Assembly: GCF_053078305.1 (NCBI RefSeq)
Contig: NZ_CP166879.1
Length of the DNA: 64,000 nucleotides
Reading direction: 5' to 3' (one strand)
Under the pieces are notes generated by a model. It did no database searches. It was not told where the DNA came from and saw only the letters and a program-made list of their open reading frames with translations. Each line of letters opens with the position of its first letter. Position 1 is the stretch's first letter. Both the position numbers and the translations under genes were made by a program. Shown piece after piece: positions 2,494 to 60,048 of this stretch.

Positions 2494-3378
2494 TCAATCA
2501 TGTATTTTTACAGCAAGACAACCACGAACAAATTCAGGATTAAAATGTTTTACCGACTCCCCAACATAACCCAAATCAAGCGAACTAATTTGTGCCATTT
2601 CTTTCTCTGTCAGTGAGAAATCCCAGATAGCAAAATTTTCTTCGATACGCTGTTGATGTGTCGATTTCGGAATAACGACCACTCCCCGTTGAATATTCCA
2701 ACGCAGAATGACTTGAGAAATCGATTTTTGATGGGCATCTGCAATACTCTGAAGCAGATTATTTTCAAAGGGTTTATGTCGTCCACCACCTAACGGAGCC
2801 CATGCTTCAGGCTGCACGTTATAATACTTCATGGTTGCCAGCGCCTCTGGTTGGGCAAAATAGGGATGCAACTCGACCTGGTTGACCATCGGTTTAACTC
2901 TTACCGTTTCACAAAAGTTCGCCAGAACATGAGGATAGAAATTGGAAACCCCAATCGCTTTTAATTTGCCCTCTCCATAGGCATCTTCGAGTGCACGCCA
3001 CGCACTGAAATAATCGCGCATGGCCTGGTGCAATAAATAGAGGTCGAAGTATTCTAGTCCCGATTTTTTTAATGATGCTTCAATACCTGCTGCTGCCGTA
3101 TCCTGATTCAACATATCCTGCACCCACAATTTAGACGTTATAAATAACTCTTCTCGGGTACATAAACATTCGGATATAGCTTCACGAACGGCTTCACCGA
3201 CGGCATCTTCATTACCGTATACCGCTGCAGTGTCGATGAGTCGATACCCCGTGCGGATAGCGTTCAACACTGACTGTTTGCACACGTTTTTATCGGTAAC
3301 CTGAAAAACACCAAATCCCATCATCGGCATTTTCAGATTGTTACTTAATACGGAAAATTCCACTGTCAGTCCCTCCAT
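2494..3378 (-). CDS. aldo-keto reductase (DkgA/2,5-diketo-D-gluconate reductase-like)
   Basis: AKR N-terminal signature MPMMGFGVFQ, LIDTAAVYGNE, SNF; alternative GTG start at 3363 preceded by GGAGG. Confidence 0.85.
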   Translation of the reverse strand: MEGLTVEFSVLSNNLKMPMMGFGVFQVTDKNVCKQSVLNAIRTGYRLIDTAAVYGNEDAVGEAVREAISECLCTREELFITSKLWVQDMLNQDTAAAGIEASLKKSGLEYFDLYLLHQAMRDYFSAWRALEDAYGEGKLKAIGVSNFYPHVLANFCETVRVKPMVNQVELHPYFAQPEALATMKYYNVQPEAWAPLGGGRHKPFENNLLQSIADAHQKSISQVILRWNIQRGVVVIPKSTHQQRIEENFAIWDFSLTEKEMAQISSLDLGYVGESVKHFNPEFVRGCLAVKIHD

Positions 3379-3611
3379 TAAGCATGAACAATGAGTCTAC
3401 GTTAAAACGTAACCTCAAATTAGTATGTGGATTTTGATATCACTTATGCAAAAAATTCATTAATAATGTAGGACTGAAACCTCTCTATTTTCGGGGACAA
3501 CGAAGCAGACGCTACCAGTGCTTTTGCCTTCGCCCTTGCTGTTTTTGATACACTTAGGGCCCAGGGCATAACGAAAATGTGCGATATGACAAAGAATTAA
3601 CGGAGAATGTG

Positions 3612-4589: not shown

Positions 4590-7500
4590 TTAGTTCATCG
4601 CCTCCTCGCCCTTTGCCGTATCGGCATCCACCGCGGTAATGGTCACCGTCACTGGCTTCATTTCGTACCCGCCATACGTGAGGGCGTTAAATGTAAACGT
4701 ATAGACACCTGGCTTGCTGGTACTAAATGTACGCGTGATTTTTCCGCTCACGAAATGGTCATTTTTCGACGGCAGGAACTGATAATCCTTCTCCGTCACC
4801 CCTTCTGGCGTCTGAATGTCGACCCACATATTCCCGCCAACGGGGTTATTTGCCGACATCAGGGTCACCTCCAGCTTCGCGGTCGATTTCCCATCCGCCA
4901 CCAGAGATTGCATATCAGATGATGCGGTGAGCACCGCGTTTTTATCATCCGCGACGAATTTAGATTCGGCAGTTTTCGTTGATACCTGACCGTTGGTCTG
5001 ACTCACTTGCGCCGTGAGTGTATATGTCGCCGCAACAGTAGTGGTGGCGGTGAAAATAGCCTGCCCTTGCTCATTCGTTGTCGCTGTGCCATTCGGTTCC
5101 AGGTTTAACGAAGCCGGGCTGGCAGTCAGCGTCACGTCGCTATCTTTCACCAAATTGTTATTGGCATCAGTCACCGTAACTTTATACGTTTGTTTGGCTT
5201 TGCCGTCCGCCAGCGCATAGTTGCCCATCACCTCAATACCGGAGACGGTTGCGGTAGCCTTATCGGCTACAAACGTTATAGTCTGCGTATCCGAAGGCTG
5301 GCTATTCCCTGCCGATGCCGTGATCTCATACGTTCCGGCAGTCACTGAAACCACCTGCAACTCGGCTTTCCCCTCATCGTTGGCTTTCACCCAGACATTA
5401 TCGCCTGTAAGCGGCTTGACACCCCGGGGCAGATTAAAGGTCACCAGGCTCCCTGGAACAGGGTTACCATTTTTATCCTCAACGTTCGCCGTCAGCGTAA
5501 AGGCATCTTTGCCGTTTGCCACTTTTTGAGCAGCGGTGTCTACCTGCAGGTTTGCCTGACCGGTGCTGGCATCCGCGTTGAATTTCACCGTGACCGTCTT
5601 CTGAGCACCATTCACCGAAGCGGAAATATTGTGTTCTCCCGCAACCGTTGACATAAGCTCAATGTCCACTTTCCCTGCCGCATTGGTTGTTACTGTATTC
5701 CCCGTCTTGCTGGTCACACCCTGCGGTAAAGTCAGCGTAACTTCTTGCCCCTGCAACGGGTTACCATAGCTGTCCACGACGGTCAGGGTTATCTGGTTAG
5801 TAGACTGTCCATTAGCCAGTTGGTTATTAACCTTCACTGTCATATCACGAATCTCAGCCTGAGAAGCGTCCCCTGCAACATTCAGCACCAGTGGCTGAGC
5901 AACGGCATTTTGGCCGTTCACTCGCGGCATCACAGACAACTGACCCGCGGCAGATCCCAGCGTTAAGGTCGCCACGTAGACCCCATTACCTTTCTCTGTC
6001 CAGTTTCCTGCTGAAGGACGCTCACTCCCCGTGCTGGCGGCACCGCTAAACACTGGTGCATCTGGCTTCAGCCCGGTGACCGGGTTCCCGTACGCATCCT
6101 TCACGGTGAAGGTGAGTTCCGTCGTCGTTTTGACGGTCGGAGCCTTATTGTCCGCAACAAGCGTAGAGTTCGCTGATGACATCTCCCCGGCGATGACCGT
6201 CAACTGCGCGGCTTCGGTGGCTGCTGGCTGGCCGTTGAAGAGCGGCATGACGCGAAGCTCGCCCGTCTTTCCACCTGTAGTCAACGTAGCAACATAGGAA
6301 CCGTTACCTTTTTCGGTCCAACTGGAAACGGTCGCCCCTTCAGAGGCGGTCCCCGTCAAACTTGCCGACAACGCAAGACCACTGATAGCGTTGCCATGCG
6401 CATCTTTCGCCACCAGCGTCACGGTTGTGCTTTCGCCGGCTTTTACGTGATCTTCTGCGACAGAGACTTTCGACTGGTTTGAAGATAACGCATCAGCCAC
6501 CACGGTTACTTTTGCCGCATTTGCTGCCGCATCCTGTCCATTTAGCTTCGGCATAACTTCTAATTCACCCGCCGTAGAGCCGAGAGTAATCTGCGCAGTC
6601 CACGTCCCATCACCATTATTTGTCCAGCCCGATGCCGTAGAACCTACAGCAGCGGCACCCGCTAATGACGGCGCTTCCGGCGTGAGGCTGGTCACAGGGT
6701 TGTCATAGGCATCTTTTACCGTCCAGATTGCCGTAACTGTACCCCCAACCACCGGTTTATCAGGATTCAGGGTGATGGACGAATGTGCTGCATCAAGCGG
6801 CCCGGCAACAAACTTCAGCGTTTGTTGTAATGTGCCCAGCTGATACTGCTCGCTGAAAGCACGCACAACAACGTTTCCGGCACGGGTCGAAGAAACCGTG
6901 GCGCTGTAAACCCCTGGTTCTATTTCCGAAATGGCACCAACGGTTACACCATTAGTGTCTTGCGGAACAAATCGCAAGCGGCTGGCTTCTCCCGTCACCG
7001 GATTACCCTCGGAGTCCACCGCAGTCAACGTCAACGTATAGGCTTGCTGACCATCAGCAACCACGTCACCTGACGGCTCGTTAGCGCTCAGGGTGGAGTT
7101 TGCCACATCCATCATCGTGGCCCGCAGTTCTGCAGTGACGGTTTTGCTCATGCCATCAACACTAACAGTAATCGTTGCCTCACCTGACTGCGTTCCGGTA
7201 GTAAAGACAGACTGATACACCCCTGCTTCAGTTTCGGTGAACTCACCCAGTGTTGGCTTTGCCTGTGATTTAGTGGCCTTCAGGGAACGAGTCACAATAT
7301 TTCCAGCCGGTTTGAAAGTTAGTTCAGTCTTGATCTGATCTTTCATGCCCGTGACTGGCTGGCCCTCGGCGTCGCGCAGAGACAGCACCAGCGGTTTTTG
7401 CTCATTACCGTTAGCAAGCATTTGAATACGGCTCTGACCGTCAAGCGTTAACGCCGTGCGATCGGCGCTCATACCAGCTCCGGTAATGACCACCTCTGTC

Positions 7501-8843
7501 TGCACGCGTTTTGAGGTATTGCCTTTGTTATCGTAGGCAACCGCAGAAATCGCATAATAATTGTCTTTGCCTGGACGATAAGCCGGGAGCGTTACTTGCC
7601 ACTGACTACCCTGACCGGTAATTTTGCCACCTTCAGCCAGTAATGACGGCGCTTCCCACTGCACATTTTTCAGTCCGTGAGTTGCTTTGCTGACCACAAG
7701 CCCCAGGGAAAGTGTCTGACCGCCCTTACCTTCAATACGCTCAGGCAGAGCAATACGGATCACTTCAGATTTGCGGTACTCAAGAACGATGTTGTTATTA
7801 CGCTCAACCAGGTCATAGCGGCTGCCTGCCAGTACCCGACGCTCGCGAATGCTATCCGTATCGAGTTGTTTCGCCAAAGGTTCGCCAATTCGGTAGTTAA
7901 CTTCCAGGCCAAAGCGAGTGTCATTCTCACCGCTCTTGCCCTGCTTATGCCCGGCGCTCAGTGTCAGAAGAGGCACTGGCGTGTAATTCACTTCAGCGGT
8001 AATCGCATGTGGATCTTTCTGGCGTTTATCTTTACCAAACAGCCCGACTTCATCGCCATAATACTGTTCATACATCAGGCTTGCGCCAAGCTGCGGCCAG
8101 GCAGGTAAATAGCCCTCTGCGCGGATATCCCAACCATTCGCCGGGCGTTCCTGATAATCCTCAATATCCGGCGATTTTTTCCAGCCAGAAGCCCGAATAT
8201 AACCATTGGCGCTCAGTTTCAGATAATCGCGCCAGTATTCCGCACCAACACCAATGCGGGTATGACTACGGGATAAATCATGGTCGATAAAGGTGTTCAC
8301 CCCCGCCATCCAGTCATTTCCTGAAAAATGACGCCAGCCAAAACCAATATTTGACTGAGTACGATCGTCTGTACGATGTATTGCCCCCTGAGTGAACAAC
8401 ATATTTGTCGGCGTATCATAAATCGGATAAAGCATTTCCAGCGAAGAATCCTTCAGCGAGAAATCTTTATCGACATTCAGTTTGACGCGCGCTGTACCAT
8501 ATTTCCCGAGCCACTCCTGTATTTCCTGGTTAGCTTTAGCGGTGGCCATTCCGGTAATAAAATTACGTGTCGCATCGCTATCTGGCTGACTGCTTAAAAA
8601 TGTCCCGGCATTTGCGGCAAACGACGCGACATTTTTCTCCACGTTATTATCAGCAGTTACCGTAGTATTTCCCATGCTCAACCGTGGCTGAACCGCATGC
8701 TGCGCACGTGCCGCCATTACTGGGGTAAAGGTGACAGCGAGTGGAAAAAGAACCTGAACAGAGATATTTGCCCACGCCACGCAGCGGGCCAGAACTGAAT
8801 AACGAAATCGTGGTTGTTTATGACCTGTTTTATAACGTGACAT
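4590..8843 (-). CDS. eaeH: intimin/invasin-family inverse autotransporter adhesin with repeated Ig-like (Big) domains
   Basis: 1417 aa; N-terminal beta-barrel inverse-autotransporter region followed by many ~90-aa Big-type repeats; position between ykgA and the ykgM region. Confidence 0.85.
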   Translation of the reverse strand: MSRYKTGHKQPRFRYSVLARCVAWANISVQVLFPLAVTFTPVMAARAQHAVQPRLSMGNTTVTADNNVEKNVASFAANAGTFLSSQPDSDATRNFITGMATAKANQEIQEWLGKYGTARVKLNVDKDFSLKDSSLEMLYPIYDTPTNMLFTQGAIHRTDDRTQSNIGFGWRHFSGNDWMAGVNTFIDHDLSRSHTRIGVGAEYWRDYLKLSANGYIRASGWKKSPDIEDYQERPANGWDIRAEGYLPAWPQLGASLMYEQYYGDEVGLFGKDKRQKDPHAITAEVNYTPVPLLTLSAGHKQGKSGENDTRFGLEVNYRIGEPLAKQLDTDSIRERRVLAGSRYDLVERNNNIVLEYRKSEVIRIALPERIEGKGGQTLSLGLVVSKATHGLKNVQWEAPSLLAEGGKITGQGSQWQVTLPAYRPGKDNYYAISAVAYDNKGNTSKRVQTEVVITGAGMSADRTALTLDGQSRIQMLANGNEQKPLVLSLRDAEGQPVTGMKDQIKTELTFKPAGNIVTRSLKATKSQAKPTLGEFTETEAGVYQSVFTTGTQSGEATITVSVDGMSKTVTAELRATMMDVANSTLSANEPSGDVVADGQQAYTLTLTAVDSEGNPVTGEASRLRFVPQDTNGVTVGAISEIEPGVYSATVSSTRAGNVVVRAFSEQYQLGTLQQTLKFVAGPLDAAHSSITLNPDKPVVGGTVTAIWTVKDAYDNPVTSLTPEAPSLAGAAAVGSTASGWTNNGDGTWTAQITLGSTAGELEVMPKLNGQDAAANAAKVTVVADALSSNQSKVSVAEDHVKAGESTTVTLVAKDAHGNAISGLALSASLTGTASEGATVSSWTEKGNGSYVATLTTGGKTGELRVMPLFNGQPAATEAAQLTVIAGEMSSANSTLVADNKAPTVKTTTELTFTVKDAYGNPVTGLKPDAPVFSGAASTGSERPSAGNWTEKGNGVYVATLTLGSAAGQLSVMPRVNGQNAVAQPLVLNVAGDASQAEIRDMTVKVNNQLANGQSTNQITLTVVDSYGNPLQGQEVTLTLPQGVTSKTGNTVTTNAAGKVDIELMSTVAGEHNISASVNGAQKTVTVKFNADASTGQANLQVDTAAQKVANGKDAFTLTANVEDKNGNPVPGSLVTFNLPRGVKPLTGDNVWVKANDEGKAELQVVSVTAGTYEITASAGNSQPSDTQTITFVADKATATVSGIEVMGNYALADGKAKQTYKVTVTDANNNLVKDSDVTLTASPASLNLEPNGTATTNEQGQAIFTATTTVAATYTLTAQVSQTNGQVSTKTAESKFVADDKNAVLTASSDMQSLVADGKSTAKLEVTLMSANNPVGGNMWVDIQTPEGVTEKDYQFLPSKNDHFVSGKITRTFSTSKPGVYTFTFNALTYGGYEMKPVTVTITAVDADTAKGEEAMN

Positions 8844-18835: not shown

Positions 18836-19423
18836 ATGAAAAAAAAGGTTCTGGCAATAGCTCTGGTAACGGTGTTTACCGGTATAGGTGTGGCGCAGGC
18901 TGCTGACGTAACAGCTCAGGCTGTAGCGACCTGGTCAGCAACAGCCAAAAAAGACACCACCAGTAAGCTGGTTGTGACGCCACTCGGTAGCCTGGCGTTC
19001 CAGTATGCCGAAGGCATTAAAGGTTTTAACTCACAGAAAGGTCTATTTGACGTGGCTATCGAGGGTGACTCAACGGCTACCGCCTTTAAACTGACCTCAC
19101 GTCTTATCACCAACACCTTAACCCAGTTGGATACCTCAGGTTCTACACTGAATGTGGGCGTGGATTATAACGGCGCGGCAGTCGAAAAAACTGGCGATAC
19201 CGTGATGATCGATACCGCCAACGGCGTACTGGGCGGCAACCTTAGCCCGCTGGCAAACGGTTACAATGCCAGCAATCGTACCACCGCACAGGATGGTTTC
19301 ACTTTCTCCATCATCAGCGGCACCACCAATGGTACCACCGCAGTAACCGATTACAGCACTCTACCGGAGGGCATCTGGAGCGGCGACGTTAGCGTACAGT
19401 TCGACGCGACCTGGACCAGTTAA
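18836..19423 (+). CDS. ecpA: EcpA (MatB), E. coli common pilus major subunit
   Basis: 195 aa; signal peptide [22 protein letters not shown], Thr/Ser-rich pilin. Confidence 0.9.
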
Positions 19424-19480: not shown

Positions 19481-20149
19481 ATGAAAAAGCACCTTCTGCT
19501 TCTCGCTCTGCTGTTATCCGGAATATCTCCGGCCCAGGCGCTGGATGTCGGCGATATATCATCGTTTATGAACAGTGACAGCAGCACGCTGAGCAAAACG
19601 ATCAAAAACAGTACCGACAGTGGTCGCCTCATCAATATCCGTCTCGAACGGCTCTCTTCACCGCTTGACGACGGGCAGGTTATCTCAATGGACAAGCCGG
19701 ACGAGTTGCTACTCACTCCCGCCAGCTTGCTGCTACCCGCCCAAGCCAGCGAAGTGATCCGCTTCTTCTATAAGGGACCAGCAGATGAAAAAGAGCGCTA
19801 CTACCGCATTGTCTGGTTTGATCAGGCCCTCAGTGATGCGCAGCGCGATAATGCCAACCGCAGCGCTGTGGCCACTGCTTCCGCCCGCATCGGCACCATT
19901 CTGGTCGTCGCCCCCCGCCAGGCAAACTACCACTTTCAGTACGCCAACGGCACCCTGACAAATACAGGAAATGCGACGCTGCGGATCCTCGCCTACGGCC
20001 CCTGCCTGAAAGCCGCCAATGGTAAAGAGTGTAAAGAGAATTACTACCTGATGCCGGGCAAGTCGCGTCGTTTTACCCGCGTGGACACGGCGGATAACAA
20101 AGGACGGGTTGCACTTTGGCAGGGTGATAAGTTCATTCCCGTGAAATAG
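19481..20149 (+). CDS. ecpB: EcpB, periplasmic pilus chaperone
   Basis: 222 aa with signal peptide; operon position. Confidence 0.85.
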
Positions 20150-20174
20150 ATAGCTGTGCAGATGGATAACGACA

Positions 20175-22700
20175 ATGCCTTTACGACGGTTCTCCCCAGG
20201 ACTGAAAGCCCAGTTTGCCTTCGGCATGGTCTTTTTGTTCGTTCAGCCCGATGCCAGCGCTGCTGACATAAGTGCGCAGCAAATAGGTGGGGTGATTATT
20301 CCGCAGGCCTTCAGTCAGGCGCTCCAGGACGGCATGAGCGTCCCGCTTTATATTCATCTCGCCGGTAGCCAGGGTCGCCAGGACGATCAGCGAATCGGCA
20401 GCGCTTTTATCTGGTTGGATGATGGACAGCTACGCATCCGGAAAATACAGCTGGAAGAGAGTGAAGATAACGCCAGTGTCAGCGAACAAACTCGACAGCA
20501 GCTGATGGCTCTGGCGAACGCCCCGTTCAATGAGGCCCTTACCATCCCCCTGACTGACAACGCGCAGCTGGATCTCAGCTTGCGCCAACTGCTGCTGCAG
20601 CTGGTGGTCAAGCGCGAAGCGCTGGGCACTGTACTACGCTCACGTAGCGAAGACATCGGGCAGTCCAGTGTTAACACCCTCAGCAGTAATCTGAGCTATA
20701 ACTTCGGCATCTATAACAACCAGTTGCGTAACGGCGGGAGCAACACATCCAGCTATCTGTCGCTGAATAACGTTACTGCACTGCGCGAACATCATGTGGT
20801 GCTCGACGGCTCGCTGTACGGAATCGGTAGCGGTCAACAGGACAGTGAATTATATAAAGCGATGTATGAACGCGATTTTGCCGGTCACCGATTTGCCGGT
20901 GGAATGCTCGACACCTGGAACTTGCAGTCCTTAGGGCCGATGACCGCCATTTCAGCAGGGAAGATTTACGGCCTTTCCTGGGGAAACCAGGCCAGCTCCA
21001 CCATCTTCGACAGCAGCCAGTCAGCCACGCCAGTGATCGCCTTTTTACCGGCGGCGGGTGAAGTACATCTCACCCGTGATGGGCGGCTACTAAGCGTTCA
21101 GAACTTCACTATGGGCAATCATGAAGTGGATACCCGGGGTCTACCGTACGGTATTTACGATGTGGAAGTTGAGGTGATCGTTAACGGTCGCGTGATCAGC
21201 AAACGCACCCAGCGGGTCAATAAGCTGTTTAGCCGGGGGCGCGGCGTTGGTGCACCACTGGCGTGGCAGGTATGGGGCGGTAGCTTTCATATGGATCGCT
21301 GGTCGGAAAACGGGAAAAAGACGCGACCAGCTAAGGAGAGCTGGCTAGCAGGTGCCTCGACCTCCGGCTCATTGAGTACGCTTAGCTGGGCGGCAACGGG
21401 ATATGGATACGATAATCAGGCGGTGGGTGAAACCCGTCTGACGCTGCCGCTTGGGGGAGCGATCAACGTTAACCTGCAAAATATGCTGGCCAGTGACAGC
21501 TCATGGAGCAACATCGCCAGCATCAGCGCCACTCTACCGGGAGGCTTTAGTTCGCTGTGGGTTAACCAGGAAAAAACCCGCATTGGCAATCAATTGCGAC
21601 GTAGCGATGCCGACAACCGTGCAATCGGCGGCACACTCAACCTGAACTCACTGTGGTCGAAGCTGGGCACATTCAGCATCAGCTACAATGATGACCGCCG
21701 TTACAACAGCCATTATTACACGGCAGATTACTATCAAAATGTCTACAGCGGTCCCTTTGGTTCGCTTGGCCTGCGGGCCGGTATTCAGCGCTATAACAAC
21801 GGCGACAGCAACGCCAATACAGGGAAATATATCGCTCTCGATCTCTCGCTACCACTGGGCAACTGGTTTAGCGCAGGGATGACTCATCAAAACGGCTACA
21901 CCATGGCAAACCTGTCAGCACGCAAGCAGTTTGATGAAGGGACCATTCGCACTGTTGGTGCCAATCTGTCACGAGCCATCTCCGGCGATACCGGTGATGA
22001 CAAAACTCTCAGTGGTGGGGCGTATGCACAGTTCGACGCTCGCTACGCCAGCGGAACGCTGAACGTCAATAGCGCGGCGGACGGCTACGTCAATACCAAT
22101 TTAACCGCCAATGGCAGCGTCGGCTGGCAGGGTAAAAACATTGCTGCCAGCGGGCGGACTGATGGCAACGCTGGGGTGATATTCAACACCGGGCTGGAGG
22201 ACGACGGTCAGATCAGCGCCAAAATCAACGGGCGGATTTTCCCGCTTAACGGCAAGCGTAACTATCTCCCGCTCTCTCCCTATGGAAGATATGAGGTGGA
22301 GTTACAGAACAGCAAAAACTCACTCGACAGTTACGATATCGTCAGCGGTCGCAAAAGTCATCTGACTCTCTATCCAGGCAATGTCGCTGTCATTGAGCCA
22401 GAGGTGAAGCAGATGGTTACCGTCTCCGGTCGTATCCGTGCGGAAGACGGCACACTGCTGGCTAACGCACGGATTAACAACCATATCGGCCGAACCCGAA
22501 CCGATGAAAACGGCGAGTTTGTCATGGACGTGGATAAGAAATACCCCACTATCGATTTTCGCTACAGTGGCAATAAAACCTGCGAAGTGGCACTGGAACT
22601 CAACCAGGCGCGCGGTGCCGTCTGGGTCGGTGATGTGGTCTGCAGCGGCCTCTCATCGTGGGCGGCGGTGACGCAGACAGGAGAAGAGAATGAGAGTTAA
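20175..22700 (+). CDS. ecpC: EcpC, outer membrane usher
   Basis: 841 aa, signal peptide, beta-rich; operon position. Confidence 0.9.
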
Positions 22701-52543: not shown

Positions 52544-54667
52544 ATGTCCAGGCTGACTGATTTAATAGCTAAAGCGAAGGCCAAAGACCCACAGTTGGGC
52601 GCTGACCTGGATCGAGAAATCAAGATCCTATCATCACGACTTCCCTTTGGTCTTAATTTCGAACGACATAGCCCTGAAGTTGTCGAGTTGCCATTGCGGC
52701 CTATTCGAAAGGGAGACAAGGTTCGCGTTCTGCCGGAGCGTGGCTCCCCTAAGAAAGGCGATCAGCGGCTATGGCAGGTGAAAGCCATCAACAAGGCGAA
52801 AAAAAACGCTGATATCGAATTGCTGGATACAGTTGTTGTCGAGACTCAGACTGTAGCGCTGAACGATCTTGTCGTTATAGCTGAATTTCGTGACACCATC
52901 TGGCCAGGTCTGGTCAGTACGGGAAAAGTACAGCGCGGTGGTGATAAGCCTTTTCACTCGGTCATTAATGGCGAAAACTATCATGTGCTGAAAGCATTGA
53001 CCTACACGCATAGAGGCAAGGTGGATGCCATTTATATCGATCCTCCGTATAACTCGGGAGCTAAAGACTGGAAATACAATAACGATTACGTTGAGAAGGA
53101 CGATTTATATCGCCACAGTAAATGGTTGGCCTTTATGGAACGCCGCTTGTTGGTAGCTAAAGAGTTACTAAATCCTGCCGACTCAGTTCTCATCATCGCT
53201 ATTGATGAGAAAGAATATTTACGACTTGGGCTATTACTCGAACAAGTGTTCCCAGAGGCCAGTATTGAGATGGTAACGTCTGTGGTAAATCCCCGTGGTC
53301 GTCATCGCCCTGGAAGGTTTGCCCGGTCGGACGAATATGTCTTTTTTGTTCTGTTTGGAAAAGCAACAGTTGGACAAGAGTTAGATCCAGACTTTGCCGG
53401 AGGCAGCCAAGTCCCATGGAGGACCCTGAGACGAAGTGACGCTGCGTCGGCACGAGGTAAGCCAAAAGGCGGTACGGCTCAATTTTATCCGATCTACGTA
53501 AACAGCAATGGAGAAATTGAAGAAATAGGTACACCACTACCGCATGGAATTCCACGTAATACAGTCCAAGAGCGTGAAAATTGTGTTGCAGTATTTCCAA
53601 TACGCGACTCAGGACTTGAAATGAACTGGGGATTAACCTCTTCAGCTCTTAAGGCAATCCACGCTAAAGGCTATGTACGCGTTGGTCGCAGCACGCCTAA
53701 TAAGCCACAAAAATGGGAAATATCATATCTGACATCTGGCAAAATAGATGATATAGAGAGCGGGCGTGCAACTATTGTTGGGCATAATTCTGATGGAAGT
53801 GTTAAAGCGGAATACATTGCGGATAAGTTGAAAACGCCAACCTCAACGTGGATGAGAATCTCTCACAATGCAGAAACAGGTGGAACAAATCTGCTGAAAG
53901 CTCTGTTGCCTGATCGCCGATTTCCTTTCCCAAAATCACTGTATGCAGTTGAAGATGCACTCCGTTTTTTTATTTCAGCAAAAAAAAATGCTGTAGTAGT
54001 AGATTTCTTCAGTGGCTCAGGAACAACCGCCCATGCAGTCATGCGTCTGAACAAACAGGATGGTGGTCGCCGCCAGTGCATCTCCATCACGAACAATGAA
54101 GTCGCTGCCAGCGAACAAAAACAGTTGCGTGAACAGGGGTTACGCCCCGGAGATCCCGAATGGGAAAAATGGGGGATCTGTGATTACATCACAAAGCCGC
54201 GTGTACAGGCAGCTATAACAGGCAAGACACCTGAAGGAGAACCGATTGATGGCGACTATAAGTTTATCGACGAGTTCCCAATGTCTAAAGGCTTTGAGGA
54301 AAACGCTGAATTCTTTACCCTGACTTACGAAGCTGAAAAATCGGTTAGCCATAACCTTGCCTATGCGCGCATTGCGCCGTTACTGTGGTTACGTGCGGGT
54401 GCTCGTGGCAAATGTATTGACAGACTGCCTGCTGAAGGATGGGCGGTGGCTGATACTTATGGCCTGCTATCGGCTGTGGATCAGGCCACGCCTTTCATTG
54501 AAGCCATTAGCCATGCCAGTGACGTACGGGTGGCCTTTATCGTCACTGACGATGACCGCCACTTTCAAGCTGTCACGAGGCGTCTGCCAAAAGGTGTTGA
54601 ACCGGTACGTTTGTACGAATCGTATCTGACCAATTTCAGCTTTACCAATGGGGAATGGACAGAATGA
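52544..54667 (+). CDS. mod: Type III restriction-modification Mod subunit (beta-class N6-adenine DNA methyltransferase)
   Basis: ORF 52406..54667; AGGA RBS before ATG at 52544; motif IV DPPYN precedes motif I FFSGSGTT (beta order); flanking blocks resemble EcoP15I-type Mod as recalled from memory. Confidence 0.8.
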   Translation: MSRLTDLIAKAKAKDPQLGADLDREIKILSSRLPFGLNFERHSPEVVELPLRPIRKGDKVRVLPERGSPKKGDQRLWQVKAINKAKKNADIELLDTVVVETQTVALNDLVVIAEFRDTIWPGLVSTGKVQRGGDKPFHSVINGENYHVLKALTYTHRGKVDAIYIDPPYNSGAKDWKYNNDYVEKDDLYRHSKWLAFMERRLLVAKELLNPADSVLIIAIDEKEYLRLGLLLEQVFPEASIEMVTSVVNPRGRHRPGRFARSDEYVFFVLFGKATVGQELDPDFAGGSQVPWRTLRRSDAASARGKPKGGTAQFYPIYVNSNGEIEEIGTPLPHGIPRNTVQERENCVAVFPIRDSGLEMNWGLTSSALKAIHAKGYVRVGRSTPNKPQKWEISYLTSGKIDDIESGRATIVGHNSDGSVKAEYIADKLKTPTSTWMRISHNAETGGTNLLKALLPDRRFPFPKSLYAVEDALRFFISAKKNAVVVDFFSGSGTTAHAVMRLNKQDGGRRQCISITNNEVAASEQKQLREQGLRPGDPEWEKWGICDYITKPRVQAAITGKTPEGEPIDGDYKFIDEFPMSKGFEENAEFFTLTYEAEKSVSHNLAYARIAPLLWLRAGARGKCIDRLPAEGWAVADTYGLLSAVDQATPFIEAISHASDVRVAFIVTDDDRHFQAVTRRLPKGVEPVRLYESYLTNFSFTNGEWTE

Positions 54668-57237
54668 AATTTACTCTCAAAGGTTATCAGCGCGATGCTG
54701 TACATGATGCTCTGGCAAATCTCAGGAAGGCTCGCCGTTACTGGCATAACGAGAGCGACAAAAGCGCCTTCTCTTTAACTGCTGTAACCGGTGCAGGTAA
54801 GACCGTCATGGCTGCTGCTGTATTTGAAGCATTATTTCATGGCGACGATGAATTTAATTTCGATGCAGATCCCGGTGCGGTAGTGATCTGGTTTAGTGAC
54901 GACCCTGCACTGAACGAGCAAACCCGCTTTCGCTTGATGGAAGCGAGTGACCGTATCAACTACAACGATATGGTGGTAGTTGAACATCCCTTCAGTCGGC
55001 GTAAGTTCCAGGCCGGAAAAATCTATTTTCTTAACACGCAGAAGTTTGGCAAGAATAGTCTGTTAGTACGCGGATTCGATGATAAAGGCGGGCTTTTCGA
55101 GGCAACCCCTGATGCACAGGCTTATACACTGTGGGATACCATCCAGAATACCATCGAAGACCCAGATCTGACTCTCTATCTAGTACTGGACGAAGCGCAC
55201 AGGGGGATGGGGTCGTCAACGCCTTCCGGTGAAGTTGCTAAGAGTACTATTGTGCAACGTCTAATCAATGGTTCGGCTGGAGTGAAAGGTATTCCAGTAG
55301 TGTGGGGTATTTCTGCCACAGTTGAACGTTTCGACAATGCCATTGCCAATGCCGGTCATCATGTCAAACTGCCGAACGTGGTGGTTGACTCAGCTAAAGT
55401 GCAGGAATCGGGACTTATCAAGGACGATATCATTCTGGGTGTGCCTGATGAAGCTGGTGACTTCGATACAGTGTGGGTACGCCGTGCTGCCGACAAACTC
55501 AGGGAAGCGAGCGATGCCTGGGCTGAGTACGCAAGGCAGCAGGAAACCGTACACGAAGTAGTGCCTCTGATGGTATTCCAGGTTCCCAATATGCCAGATC
55601 CGAACGAGGTCGGACACTGGCTGGATACGTTATTCTCCCGTTATCCTGAATTGCCCATTGACAGTGTTGCTCATGTCTTCGGTGAACACACCACACAACG
55701 TTTCGGCCGACATCAGGTGCCTTATATTGAACCGCAGCGGGTGCAGGAATCAACTTGGGTGCGCGTATTGATTGCTAAAGATGCTATCAGCACTGGCTGG
55801 GATTGCCCACGTGCCGAAGTAATGGTTTCCTTCCGTGCAGCCAGCGACAGGACGCATATTACGCAATTGTTGGGGCGTATGGTACGTACTCCATTGGCGA
55901 GACGTATTCCGGGTAATGAGCGTTTAAACTCTGTAGAATGCCTATTGCCCAAGTTTAATACCAATACCGTGAGAGATGTCGTCAATACCTTGTTTAAGGG
56001 CGATGATACCTCTCCTCCAAGTGGACGCATCCTGGTTAACCCTGTGGAGATGAAACCTAACCCGGCTGCTTCAGCTGAAGTATGGGAAGCATTTGAAGCG
56101 CTACCTTCGCAAACCCGCCCACAGAAAGGAGCCAGACCCGCCAGACGTCTGACCGCGCTGGCACAAGAACTGGTTGATGACGGAATTCTTGATGGGGCAG
56201 TCAGGAAAGCCCATGCTGCGTTGCACGCGGTCTTGGACAAATACCAGACAGAAAATGCCGAGAAAATCAAAAACAAACGCAATGCAGTGCTCGTCGTAGA
56301 TGGTAAGGCCTTGGTTGCCAGCCTAAAGAACAAAGCTATGACCTTCAACGAATTCTGGGAAGAGGCGGATGTAGCGGTGATTGATGACGCATACCGGCGT
56401 GCAGCCCGAATCTTCAGCCCAGATGTTTCACGTACCTATGTCGAATATCTGGCCGATAAGGTTGCGGATAGAGAAGATGATGCTGAGGAATATCTGGAAG
56501 CAATCATGGAAGCTCGTGTGACCGTTGCTGGTTTGGGGCTAGTGATGGAGGTGCAGGATTACTTCGATGCTGAAGCCGATAAACTGACGAAGGCGTGGTT
56601 GGTCGTGTACACACCACAGATCAAGTCTTTGAAAGATGAGCGTAAAGAGGCTTACCGTCAAATCGTCGAAATGAGTACCAAACCGCAGGATGTGGATCTG
56701 GTCAGGCCAGAGAACAAGTTTGAAATGACCAGTGTGCGTGAAGGTGAGAAGGAAACTAACCTTCCAGTCTGGAAACACCATTTGTTGTGTGACAAAAGTG
56801 GGAACTATCCGGCTCAGTTTAACCATTGGGAAACCAAGGTTTTTGAGATCGAAACCAAACGTGAAGGATTTGCTTTCTGGTATCGTAATCCACAGTACAC
56901 AGGGCAATCGTCACTGGGAATCGCCTATGTTGAAGCCGAACAGTACAAAATTGTTCGTCCCGATTTCCTGTTCTTTGCCGAACAGGATGGTAAAATGGTT
57001 GTGGATCTTGTAGATCCTCATGGCCTACATTTGGCTGATGCTTTGCCCAAACTGAAAGGAATTGCTTTATATGCCGAACAGCATTCTGATGCTTACAGGC
57101 GAATTGAATCTGTCGCCGAAGTAAAGGGGAAATTACGAGTGTTAGATTTGAAACGGCAGGATGTACAGGATGCTGTTGCTAACGCTGAAAATGCAGAAAC
57201 GTTATTTAGTAGCGGACTTGCTAATGACTACCTGTAA
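54655..57237 (+). CDS. res: Type III restriction enzyme Res subunit (SF2 helicase plus C-terminal nuclease-like region)
   Basis: 860 aa; Walker A TGAGKT, DEAH box LVLDEAH, motif VI QLLGRMVRT; overlaps mod stop by 13 nt; C-terminal region has candidate D...ExK nuclease residues (VFEIETK). Confidence 0.7.
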   Translation: MDRMKFTLKGYQRDAVHDALANLRKARRYWHNESDKSAFSLTAVTGAGKTVMAAAVFEALFHGDDEFNFDADPGAVVIWFSDDPALNEQTRFRLMEASDRINYNDMVVVEHPFSRRKFQAGKIYFLNTQKFGKNSLLVRGFDDKGGLFEATPDAQAYTLWDTIQNTIEDPDLTLYLVLDEAHRGMGSSTPSGEVAKSTIVQRLINGSAGVKGIPVVWGISATVERFDNAIANAGHHVKLPNVVVDSAKVQESGLIKDDIILGVPDEAGDFDTVWVRRAADKLREASDAWAEYARQQETVHEVVPLMVFQVPNMPDPNEVGHWLDTLFSRYPELPIDSVAHVFGEHTTQRFGRHQVPYIEPQRVQESTWVRVLIAKDAISTGWDCPRAEVMVSFRAASDRTHITQLLGRMVRTPLARRIPGNERLNSVECLLPKFNTNTVRDVVNTLFKGDDTSPPSGRILVNPVEMKPNPAASAEVWEAFEALPSQTRPQKGARPARRLTALAQELVDDGILDGAVRKAHAALHAVLDKYQTENAEKIKNKRNAVLVVDGKALVASLKNKAMTFNEFWEEADVAVIDDAYRRAARIFSPDVSRTYVEYLADKVADREDDAEEYLEAIMEARVTVAGLGLVMEVQDYFDAEADKLTKAWLVVYTPQIKSLKDERKEAYRQIVEMSTKPQDVDLVRPENKFEMTSVREGEKETNLPVWKHHLLCDKSGNYPAQFNHWETKVFEIETKREGFAFWYRNPQYTGQSSLGIAYVEAEQYKIVRPDFLFFAEQDGKMVVDLVDPHGLHLADALPKLKGIALYAEQHSDAYRRIESVAEVKGKLRVLDLKRQDVQDAVANAENAETLFSSGLANDYL

Positions 57238-57549
57238 TCTATAGAAATTGCGTAACGAAACTGCATTTCAAATTGGTTGAGACAATCTAACTCTGAGTAT
57301 TGGAGCTTCTCTGTAAGAAGGTCCAATACTTACAAGTCTATTTGGTGACCACAGCCACTATAACTTAAAGCAGTTTAGCAGCTTGTTAACTAAAGAGTTT
57401 TATTGTTTCTTCAACCTGGAATTGCGGAATCCCCTCTTTCGTACAATTAATGATAGGATGTGTCAATATAGTAACTTTTGCAACTTCACCCGAAGTTTTT
57501 TGTAAAATATACTGACCTATTATATGTCACAAAATATGTGATGTGAGGA

Positions 57550-58344
57550 ATGATGAACAGTAACCTGACCAAAATATGTTATCAAGGTGAGACCGGAGAA
57601 AGTGATTTAAGAACGTTGATGCTTGGTGATATTTTATATATCTCATTGCGAGACGTTTTAGTGACACTGAATAAAGAAAATAGAGAAATAAATGCTGATT
57701 ACACAGTAAAATCAATGGCGGGAATAATCAGAGCACAATTACAGGTTCTTGATCCTGACGAGTATATCACGACTGATGCTGAACACAGTGTTTTTGAAGG
57801 TCAAAAAGAGATCTTCGTCACCCAGCCTGGTTTGTATCGAGTCATGTCAAGTGACCGAAGTGCTGCTGGTAAGCGCTTTCAAAAATGGCTATTTCATGAA
57901 GTCATACCATCATTGACTAAACATGGAGTATACCCACCTCCGCCAGAGGCTAAAGGATCAGTTTTAGCTCAAATGGCTGAAATACTTGCACAAAATTCGC
58001 GAGCACTTGCTGACGCAATCCATAAACACGAAAAATTGGCAGAAGATGTCTCACAGGTTAAAGGTAAGGTTGCCGACGTTGAAAGCCGCTTGGAACTGTT
58101 AGAATCAGGTCCTTCCACTATAACTGAAGATATGAAATCCCTTGATGAACGACTTGTTTTCTTGGATATGAGAATGGAGGAAAAGCATTTCACCGAGACA
58201 TTAGCCTGGTGCGAAAATATTTCAGTTCAAAAAAGCAGGAAAGTGATTCGCAAGAATTGTAGAGAGAATTCACTCTTTACTATACAGACTATCGACGAGG
58301 CGATAGCCATCATGACTGAAAGTGGAAAAATAACACAAAATTAA
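57550..58344 (+). CDS. BRO-N domain protein (prophage antirepressor-like) with C-terminal coiled coil
   Basis: 264 aa; BRO-N hallmark QPGLYRVMSSDRSAAGKRFQKWLFHEVIPSLTKHG; heptad-rich C-terminus. Confidence 0.7.
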   Translation: MMNSNLTKICYQGETGESDLRTLMLGDILYISLRDVLVTLNKENREINADYTVKSMAGIIRAQLQVLDPDEYITTDAEHSVFEGQKEIFVTQPGLYRVMSSDRSAAGKRFQKWLFHEVIPSLTKHGVYPPPPEAKGSVLAQMAEILAQNSRALADAIHKHEKLAEDVSQVKGKVADVESRLELLESGPSTITEDMKSLDERLVFLDMRMEEKHFTETLAWCENISVQKSRKVIRKNCRENSLFTIQTIDEAIAIMTESGKITQN

Positions 58345-58685
58345 AGAGTTAGGGGCATGTTATCTGCTGGTTATATTATTGAACGCTGACGTGACACAGG
58401 CTTTTCCGCAAAGAGAAGGCCTATCCAGAGGGTTACTTACGGCTACAACCGAAGTTACGCTCCCTTTTCGTAAATTTTAGTGTCAAGTTTGGTCAGATGC
58501 GTATTCCGAACAAACTGCGATCGATTCAGGTGCCATTTTGCAACAACTACTGAGTTTGCCCAACCAACTCAGATAAAATGTCAGCAACGTTATTAAAGGA
58601 TATTTACCAGGGCAAAGAAATCGTCGTAAAATTATTCAACAAATAATTTTACTGTACTTGCTCAATTTGCAGAAGGAAAATCAGG

Positions 58686-59003
58686 ATGACCAAACCATCA
58701 ACTATAGCCGGAACAGCAGGCGCTTTGGCAACTGCCGGTACTGCAGCCTCAACAGCATCAACCGTTGCAGGTGCATCAGCTGCAACAATTATGTCAGCGA
58801 CAGCAGGAACAACAGGAGCAGCTCTGGCTTCCGTTGCAGGCGCATCCGGTACAGCAGGCGCAGCAGCAATTTCATCAGGTATGGCAGCGATTGGTTCCAC
58901 TGTTGGTGGTGGGATGGCTGCCGGTGCGGTAATTACTGCAGCAGCGCCTGTTGCGATTAGTGCAGCCGTCATTTATGGGCTGGTTAAAATATTCAAAGAT
59001 TAA
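58686..59003 (+). CDS. small Ala/Gly/Thr-rich protein (105 aa) with hydrophobic C-terminal segment; function unknown
   Basis: AAGGA RBS 8 nt upstream of ATG; strong GCx codon periodicity; sequence ...GGGMAAGAVITAAAPVAISAAVIYGLVKIFKD. Confidence 0.45.
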   Translation: MTKPSTIAGTAGALATAGTAASTASTVAGASAATIMSATAGTTGAALASVAGASGTAGAAAISSGMAAIGSTVGGGMAAGAVITAAAPVAISAAVIYGLVKIFKD

Positions 59004-59610: not shown

Positions 59611-60048
59611 TTAAAGACTATCGTCGTAGGGTGCTTCAGTCAGAATCTTTTGAATTTCATGTCGTGCTTTTAGCTCCCATGAAAGATTCATATTTGCCAT
59701 TAACTCAATAAATTTTGGAAACGCGATACGTCGTCCATCTCTGCCTTCCACCCTGTGTTCTAACTCATATTGAAATGCTATCTTATAAGCGAGTTCTGAC
59801 ATGATCCAATAAAGTAGCTCATCTAGCGAACTAGTTACCTTCCGCGAGAATTCATAACCTCTTTCTGAATGAATGTAATTATATACATTGTTTTCAAATG
59901 TAACATATGGTGTGCCATCACCAATTGGAGCAGAACAAAGATTAACTGAATATCTTGAGAGACCAGCTTTCAAAGTCAATGCGTCAATTTTTTTTTGTAT
60001 TTCATTGATATTCAACAACATGTTAGCGAACCTCACGAATATATCCAT
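59611..60048 (-). CDS. cdiI: CdiI-type immunity protein cognate to the CdiA C-terminal toxin
   Basis: 145-aa ORF immediately downstream of, and overlapping, the cdiA stop; low-GC relative to cdiA body; alternative start 60021 one nt after cdiA stop. Confidence 0.6.

Follow-up and report, generated by a model that had tools for sequence, protein, structure and literature searches.

The closest described relatives of the locus reported here are the prototype Type III restriction-modification systems EcoP15I and EcoP1I (PDB 4zcf), which are carried on phage P1 or plasmid p15B and comprise two genes, mod followed by res, with a PD...ExK nuclease domain at the C-terminus of Res. Type III enzymes methylate one strand of an asymmetric site and cleave, with ATP, where two unmethylated sites lie in inverse orientation; Type III Res proteins are inactive without Mod. 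A number of Type III mod genes are phase-variable, among them modA of H. influenzae and Neisseria, modH of H. pylori and M.Eco131I of STEC, their alleles differing in the target-recognition domain (TRD) and sharing conserved 5' and 3' ends; in the true phase-variable mod groups the repeat is kept across alleles. In a survey of Type III systems, mononucleotide runs of nine bases were counted as potentially phase-variable, with rates derived from poly-G tracts of Campylobacter, and the only phase-variable Type III mod documented in E. coli is M.Eco131I, with the repeat CAGCGAC[n] (PMC5909438). A run of nine A or T is also the classical slippage-prone length in bacteria, one such run being exploited by dnaX of T. 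thermophilus, and in many bacteria it is at this length that slippery runs show signs of being selected against (PMC1088944). A further relative is YagJ of E. coli K-12 (Pfam PF27151), encoded in the CP4-6 prophage, for which a literature search did not find a functional study. EcoMVII of ST131 was considered as a relative and rejected, being an unrelated Type IIG enzyme.

The window analysed here is a stretch of 64,000 nucleotides from contig NZ_CP166879.1 (assembly GCF_053078305.1). From the letters alone it had been read as carrying mod and res as a Type III operon whose reading frames overlap, with two poly-A tracts in mod that might support slipped-strand phase variation. The operon itself was borne out, with domain homologies, sequence motifs and allelic variation of the TRD in agreement. 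With a probability of roughly 85%, we consider mod and res to be a constitutively intact two-gene Type III restriction-modification cassette on a CP4-type E. coli island, in which A8 and A9 are incidental and have no role as a switch. The features of the locus are collected in Table 1.

Table 1. Features of the mod-res locus, with positions counted from the first nucleotide of the window.
Feature	Position	Strand	Basis
mod, Type III beta-class N6-adenine DNA methyltransferase, 707 aa	52544..54667	+	PADLOC MTase_III, Pfam and PDB matches; PGAP CDS with equal coordinates in four genomes
A8 tract, GCG AAA AAA AAC (A-K-K-N), Mod residues 85-88	52799..52806	+	
Mod motif IV, DPPY, residues 166-169	53039..53050	+	Read from sequence; aligns to DPPY of EcoP15I Mod and Mbo45V
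Mod central target-recognition domain (TRD), approximate, differs between alleles	53290..53950	+	Allele comparison
A9 tract, GCA AAA AAA AAT (A-K-K-N), Mod residues 478-481, in the variable loop just before motif I	53980..53988	+	
Mod motif I, FxGxG (FSGSG, residues 489-493), AdoMet-binding	54008..54022	+	Aligned with DFFAGSGTT in EcoP15I Mod
ATGA shared by the mod stop and the conserved res start, for translational coupling	54664..54667	+	PGAP start; homologue starts
res, 857 aa, SF2 ATPase/translocase subunit ending in a nuclease-like domain	54664..57237	+	
Res Walker A, GAGKT, residues 43-47	54790..54804	+	G45, K46 and T47 invariant in 66 homologues
Res DEAH box, residues 176-179	55189..55200	+	Invariant in 66 homologues
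Res C-terminal domain, residues 665-857, Pfam PF27151 'YagJ', predicted restriction-endonuclease-like fold	56656..57234	+	Conserved E723, P766-D767, D784-P785-H786 and K796

The start codon of mod is that chosen by PGAP in four near-identical genomes and is also where the PADLOC profile match begins, a longer reading frame with the same end being possible from 52406. The longest reading frame of res opens at 54655 and overlaps mod by 13 nt, the figure given by the sequence-only reading. That the frames overlap was upheld, at a shorter length: the true overlap is most likely the 4-nt ATGA, because the homologues of Res (855-866 aa) begin with MKxTLK, PGAP places the start at 54664 (MKFTLK..., conserved in the homologues), and a GGGGA lies at 54650-54654, 9 nt upstream of this ATG. 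Both genes were intact, adjacent and co-oriented, with mod upstream, in 13 of the 13 loci having both (12 loci of E. coli genomes and one metagenome contig). Promoter and terminator scans gave scores no better than those of shuffled sequence.

Mod matched the PADLOC MTase_III profile (PDLC03645) with 963 bits over positions 1-709 of the profile, the match beginning with the Met encoded at 52544, and the Pfam N6_N4_Mtase domain at 2.5e-17. Its sequence matches in the PDB were Mbo45V, EcoP15I Mod and H. pylori Mod, the homology to EcoP15I Mod standing at E 1e-22 with DPPY and DFFxGSGTT aligned, while an NCBIfam search with Mod and Res returned nothing above the curated cut-offs. The motif order, from DPPY (residue 166) through the TRD to FxGxG (residue 489), is that of the beta-class. 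When eight other E. coli mod alleles were compared, their TRDs were 22-46% identical and the protein flanks 74-100% identical, and this variable centre between conserved ends reads as the classical Type III TRD pattern, which the phase-variable mods share. An N-terminal extension of approximately 110 aa had been described ahead of the methyltransferase core. Approximately 130 aa do precede the first residue that can be aligned to solved Type III Mods, but residue 133 aligns to residue 90 of EcoP15I Mod (90-93 across the solved Mods); the solved Mods themselves have about 90 aa before the core, and the PADLOC family profile covers the N-terminal region of Mod. Judged by these alignments, the extension appears to be mostly a feature of the family, with a real excess of about 40 aa over EcoP15I and the other solved Mods.

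Whereas Mod is homologous to EcoP15I Mod, Res is without detectable sequence relation to EcoP15I Res. PDB sequence searches using Res alone, a 66-sequence Res profile or a profile of the C-terminal domain gave no useful match, and the PADLOC REase_III profiles reached at most 33 bits over about 70 residues. The motifs of an SF2 helicase-like ATPase are present, with GKT, DEAH and QxxGRxxR invariant across the 66 homologues, and the predicted structure of the motor resembles EcoP15I Res and HsdR. Homologues of Res numbered at least 8000 in a word-based search and 623 as cluster representatives (50% identity, E <= 1e-30). Some databases label them 'type III restriction enzyme'; at NCBI, mod is named 'site-specific DNA-methyltransferase' and res 'DEAD/DEAH box helicase'.

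The sequence-only reading had held that a Res without a nuclease domain in HMM searches would count against a Type III system, and the Pfam library used gave matches to ResIII (3.2e-10) and, weakly, to Helicase_C, and to nothing else. The Type III reading stands despite this result because the predicted fold of the YagJ domain, which occupies the last ~190 residues of Res, is nuclease-like. Modelled alone, the domain reached a pLDDT of 91, and the top matches in the fold comparison were DNA nucleases, including the nuclease domains of LlaBIII and HsdR. In the model, E723 is found on helix 1, P766-D767 at the start of strand 2 and D784-P785-H786 at the end of strand 3, which are the places where E...PD...(D/E)xK falls in the PD-(D/E)xK fold. 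It is thus predicted that Res, like EcoP15I Res, has a nuclease-like domain of this fold at its C-terminus, with the signature E...PD...D-P-H where EcoP15I has PD...ExK; a nuclease activity would be in keeping with the fold, though not assured by it.

The yagJ region of E. coli K-12 aligns to positions 56406-57286 of the window at 92.9% nucleotide identity, a stretch with the 3' terminus of res in it. The yagJ CDS, of 243 aa, matches the final 243 codons of res, those of the nuclease-like domain among them. Unlike res, yagJ is a fragment only, lying directly downstream of IS1B with neither mod nor the motor part of res. On this alignment, K-12 yagJ is a relic of a res gene truncated by IS1 and no working gene.

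The island that carries mod-res, a CP4-type integrative element of E. coli, adjoins paoABCD, a chromosomal setting that differs from the phage and plasmid locations of EcoP1I and EcoP15I. Its genes occur in the order integrase, CbtA/CbeA, RadC, antirestriction gene, DUF932, Ag43, GTPase, mod-res, BRO-N and cdiA/immunity. The GC content of mod (0.476) and res (0.488) differs from that of Ag43 (0.575) and the GTPase gene (0.574), with BRO-N at 0.396, so that the compositional break with the Ag43 module that had been described is confirmed. Its separate acquisition from Ag43, also proposed at that time, fits the different neighbours found in other islands and a modular mode of acquisition. In other genomes, mod-res is found beside Cah, YfjR/YpjK, dynamin-like genes or integrases, with BRO-N or yagK as the downstream gene, and because the flanking genes differ between islands, the pair is regarded as the mobile unit. 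Neither BRO-N nor the GTPase gene was accepted as part of the system, since BRO-N alternates with yagK and one locus lacks both BRO-N/yagK and the GTPase gene. Most of the operon was present in 17 of 5426 complete E. coli genomes, and this mod allele in four.

Both poly-A tracts occur in mod exactly where and as long as had been claimed. A slip of ±1 at A8 is predicted to give a product of 89 or 103 aa, and at A9 one of 483 or 518 aa without motif I. When mod was shuffled synonymously, with the protein sequence and its own codon usage held fixed, the probability of an A/T run of at least eight was 0.78, that of a run of at least nine was 0.17, and that of two runs of at least eight was 0.34; given the protein and the codon usage, A8 and A9 are not above chance. 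The other two A/T runs of at least eight in the window likewise stem from Lys-Lys codons. The tracts are most probably an incidental outcome of encoding Lys-Lys-Asn in an acquired gene that is moderately AT-rich and prefers AAA for Lys. Tandem Repeats Finder detected no multi-base repeat in mod or res.

The earlier suggestion to compare tract lengths across related genomes was followed up, and no length variation was observed. In all 12 sequences read, each with this TRD allele (the window, L001-L004, L013 and L015-L020), the A9 tract is exactly nine bases long. The four genomes closest to the window differ from it by 2-3 SNPs and by no indel, and both of their tracts are identical to those of the window. 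Seven diverged copies of the same TRD, in which 87-105 of 2124 bases are unlike those of the window, all have A9; one is a metagenome contig, and six are contigs whose proteins are named in databases from Klebsiella, Enterobacter and other members of the Enterobacteriaceae. The 34 nt flanking A9 are equally invariant across the same-TRD copies. The A8 tract is confined to the E. coli copies of the allele, namely the window and L001-L004, the seven diverged copies, those in other genera among them, having AAAAAGACC in its place. In the eight other alleles both tract positions are interrupted, the homologous codons being AAG AAG GTC, AAT AAT ACA, AAC AAG CCT or AAA AAA GAA, with AAG AAG or AAT AAT at the site of A8. 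A metagenome scan using the A9 flanks with a variable gap between them recovered one contig, also with A9, and the same scan of species-representative genomes gave no match.

Protein records were searched for the products that slippage would leave. The exact intact Mod protein is found on 167 contigs, the 753-aa call of that cluster on 81 and the variant of the window itself on 2 (~250 in total). By comparison, none of ten predicted frameshift products (±1 slips at either tract, from both start codons and for both alleles) was found among about 15 billion proteins. A search using the TRD only gave, among the matches listed, which did not include the full-length cluster, no protein of 510 aa or less with more than 79% identity; the lack of shortened proteins of the same allele in this search is taken as supporting evidence only.

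It seems highly improbable that mod is a phasevarion gene in which slipped-strand mispairing at A9, and perhaps at A8, turns Mod ON and OFF. Restriction would then switch along with Mod, as Res needs Mod, and populations would be mixed in methylome and phage sensitivity. A run of nine bases inside the reading frame is a feature shared with phase-variable Type III mods, and A9, though not A8, has the length counted in the survey cited above (PMC5909438), the sole test for phase variation with a favourable outcome. With either ±1 slip, Mod would also end short of motif I, and the resulting OFF state would be clean and non-lethal. However, the rates behind this nine-base rule are those of poly-G in Campylobacter, and the CAGCGAC[n] repeat of M.Eco131I is absent here, as is any multi-base repeat. 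E. coli is also proficient in mismatch repair, and its indel rates climb exponentially with run length (PMC8510543). It also counts against such a switch that the run, a poly-A of Lys codons, is expected by chance, is absent or interrupted in the sister alleles, did not vary in length even among copies as diverged as the seven described above, and has left no OFF product on record. In repair-proficient E. coli, slippage at a 9-nt A run is orders of magnitude under phase-variation rates. The proposal of phase variation through A8 and A9 is accordingly not supported. Rare slippage at A9 is physically possible, a minority of OFF cells within a culture would be compatible with consensus assemblies, and slipped alleles could be kept out of sight by purifying selection. 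Were either tract to slip, the system would be silenced harmlessly, but a useful frequency of such slips is not supported by the evidence. We hold it to be very improbable, too, that RNA polymerase stutters on A9, so that a fraction of mod mRNAs is frameshifted with the DNA unchanged and a shortened Mod (483 or 518 aa), with the TRD and without the AdoMet site, lowers or modulates Mod activity. Runs of nine A/T are of the classical slippage-prone length (PMC1088944), and every copy of this TRD allele keeps A9; this retention is nothing special, however, since the flanking 34 nt are as invariant as the tract. The shifted frames hold no long or conserved alternative reading frame (the tails are of 4 and 39 aa), and the absence of the tract from sister alleles implies that it serves no conserved function.

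The preferred reading, of an intact Type III cassette without a switch, has also to be set against a non-classical role of Res. On the pattern of established Type III enzymology, a Mod dimer would recognise a short asymmetric site through the allele-specific central TRD and place m6A on one strand, and Res, translationally coupled to Mod via the ATGA overlap, would join this dimer. On unmethylated incoming DNA, the SF2 ATPase of Res would act as a switch or translocase whose ATP hydrolysis licenses a cut by the YagJ-type nuclease-like domain. These steps are the most likely ones by analogy, and an anti-phage role of the pair may be inferred in the same way. Alternatively, Res could be a helicase or translocase in which the YagJ domain, having D-x-H where (D/E)xK is expected, lacks catalytic activity or cuts a substrate that is not duplex DNA. 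The pair would then serve as a methyltransferase plus accessory motor, or as some other type of defence. We judge this improbable. It would accord with the lack of sequence matches to solved Type III Res proteins, the weak PADLOC REase_III matches and the NCBI name, which is merely that of a helicase. It would also suit the replacement of the canonical (D/E)xK Lys by the invariant His786 of the Res family and the presence of tRNA-splicing endonucleases, with their His/Lys catalytic mechanism, among the fold matches of the domain. Against it stands the Type III architecture of the locus, with mod upstream, ATGA coupling and an SF2 motor joined to a C-terminal nuclease fold. Further, E723, D767 and D784 are invariant at metal-binding positions, the near-invariant K796 lies on the next helix, and DNA nucleases head the fold matches. 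Strains in which mod is deleted and res kept exist, which would be expected of a Res that does no harm in the absence of Mod. A broader proposal, which is tentative and on balance unlikely, is that Res belongs to a large branch of Type III restriction enzymes that is uncharacterised biochemically and has YagJ as its nuclease module, marked by E...PD...D-P-H. As a separate part of this proposal, slippage at A9 at a low level, transcriptional or replicational, might tune the dosage of Mod.

The analysis removes a false lead, as a 9-base poly-A in a Type III mod gene of E. coli passes a length screen and fails every comparative test that was run. This is a caution for repeat-based surveys of phasevarions in genomes that are proficient in mismatch repair and biased towards AAA as the Lys codon. 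It also supports the naming as Type III restriction-modification of a pair that carries only the general methyltransferase and helicase names at NCBI. The general understanding of Type III systems is unchanged, mod-res being an uncharacterised example of an established system type. The new points are modest, namely a predicted nuclease-like fold with a variant signature for the YagJ domain and an explanation for the origin of K-12 yagJ. If the YagJ domain uses a variant chemistry or a different substrate, the Res family would constitute a distinct Type III subtype, and K-12 yagJ, as a leftover of this res gene, would for the first time be explained in functional terms.

Full-length homologues of Mod, the N6-adenine methyltransferase, that include the variable central target-recognition domain (P0272-P0312; mod at window 52544-54667) were found at 77-83% identity in Betaproteobacteria (Limnohabitans) and Acidobacteria (Tunturiibacter, Edaphobacter), and identities for Res were 72-75% in Xanthomonas and Burkholderiales. 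These homologue identities suggest that spread between phyla was horizontal and recent.

Remnants of the system are present within E. coli. On alignment, yagJ of K-12 (243 aa, CP4-6 prophage) is a 3' remnant of the res gene of the window, with positions 56406-57286 being 92.9% identical at the DNA level to positions 2501-3384 of the K-12 MG1655 locus (L022). That strain lacks mod and the portion of res that encodes the motor, and IS1B lies immediately upstream of the matching region. Approximately 360 of the 5426 complete E. coli genomes carry only res remnants of this yagJ kind. Another form of decay was identified in E. coli CX21, in which an insertion that includes an ISPpu12 transposase, lspA, a cation transporter and cadR interrupts mod, leaving only its last 73 codons next to an intact res. 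AW1.7, AH04 and further CX strains share this arrangement of a mod stub with a whole res. The "orphan" Res of such strains should be harmless in the absence of Mod.

Further features of the window and of comparison loci
Feature	Sequence	Coordinates	Strand	Remarks
Run of 8	Window	18839-18846		ATG AAA AAA AA; 5' end of EcpA-like ORF
BRO-N domain gene	Window	57550-58344		Downstream of res; very low GC (0.396)
Putative Ala/Gly/Thr-rich ORF, 105 aa	Window	58686..59003	+	"Hypothetical" in annotation of related genomes
A9 run	Window	59988-59996	-	CAA AAA AAA ATT (Q-K-K-I); Imm63-family immunity gene (59611..60048)
Intact res, disrupted mod	L021 (E. coli CX21)	4972-7763
"Antirestriction protein" gene	L014 (SI-NP020)	19984-20466		Same island, upstream of Ag43

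Downstream of res, the BRO-N domain gene was considered as a component of the restriction-modification system and rejected; it is placed outside the unit because in other islands its position is occupied by yagK (inovirus Gp2 family), encoded on the opposite strand. Beyond this gene, the stretch at 58649-59003 is low-complexity sequence, and open reading frames similar in length to the putative 105-aa ORF occur here in a second plus-strand frame and on the minus strand. Outside mod, the window holds only two further A/T runs of at least 8 nt, both of which stem from Lys-Lys codons, as do the A8 and A9 tracts of mod.

The island of SI-NP020 also encodes RadC and a CbtA/CbeA toxin-antitoxin pair alongside the restriction-modification system. 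Given that an "antirestriction protein" is encoded there as well, genes for restriction and for anti-restriction sit together on one mobile element.
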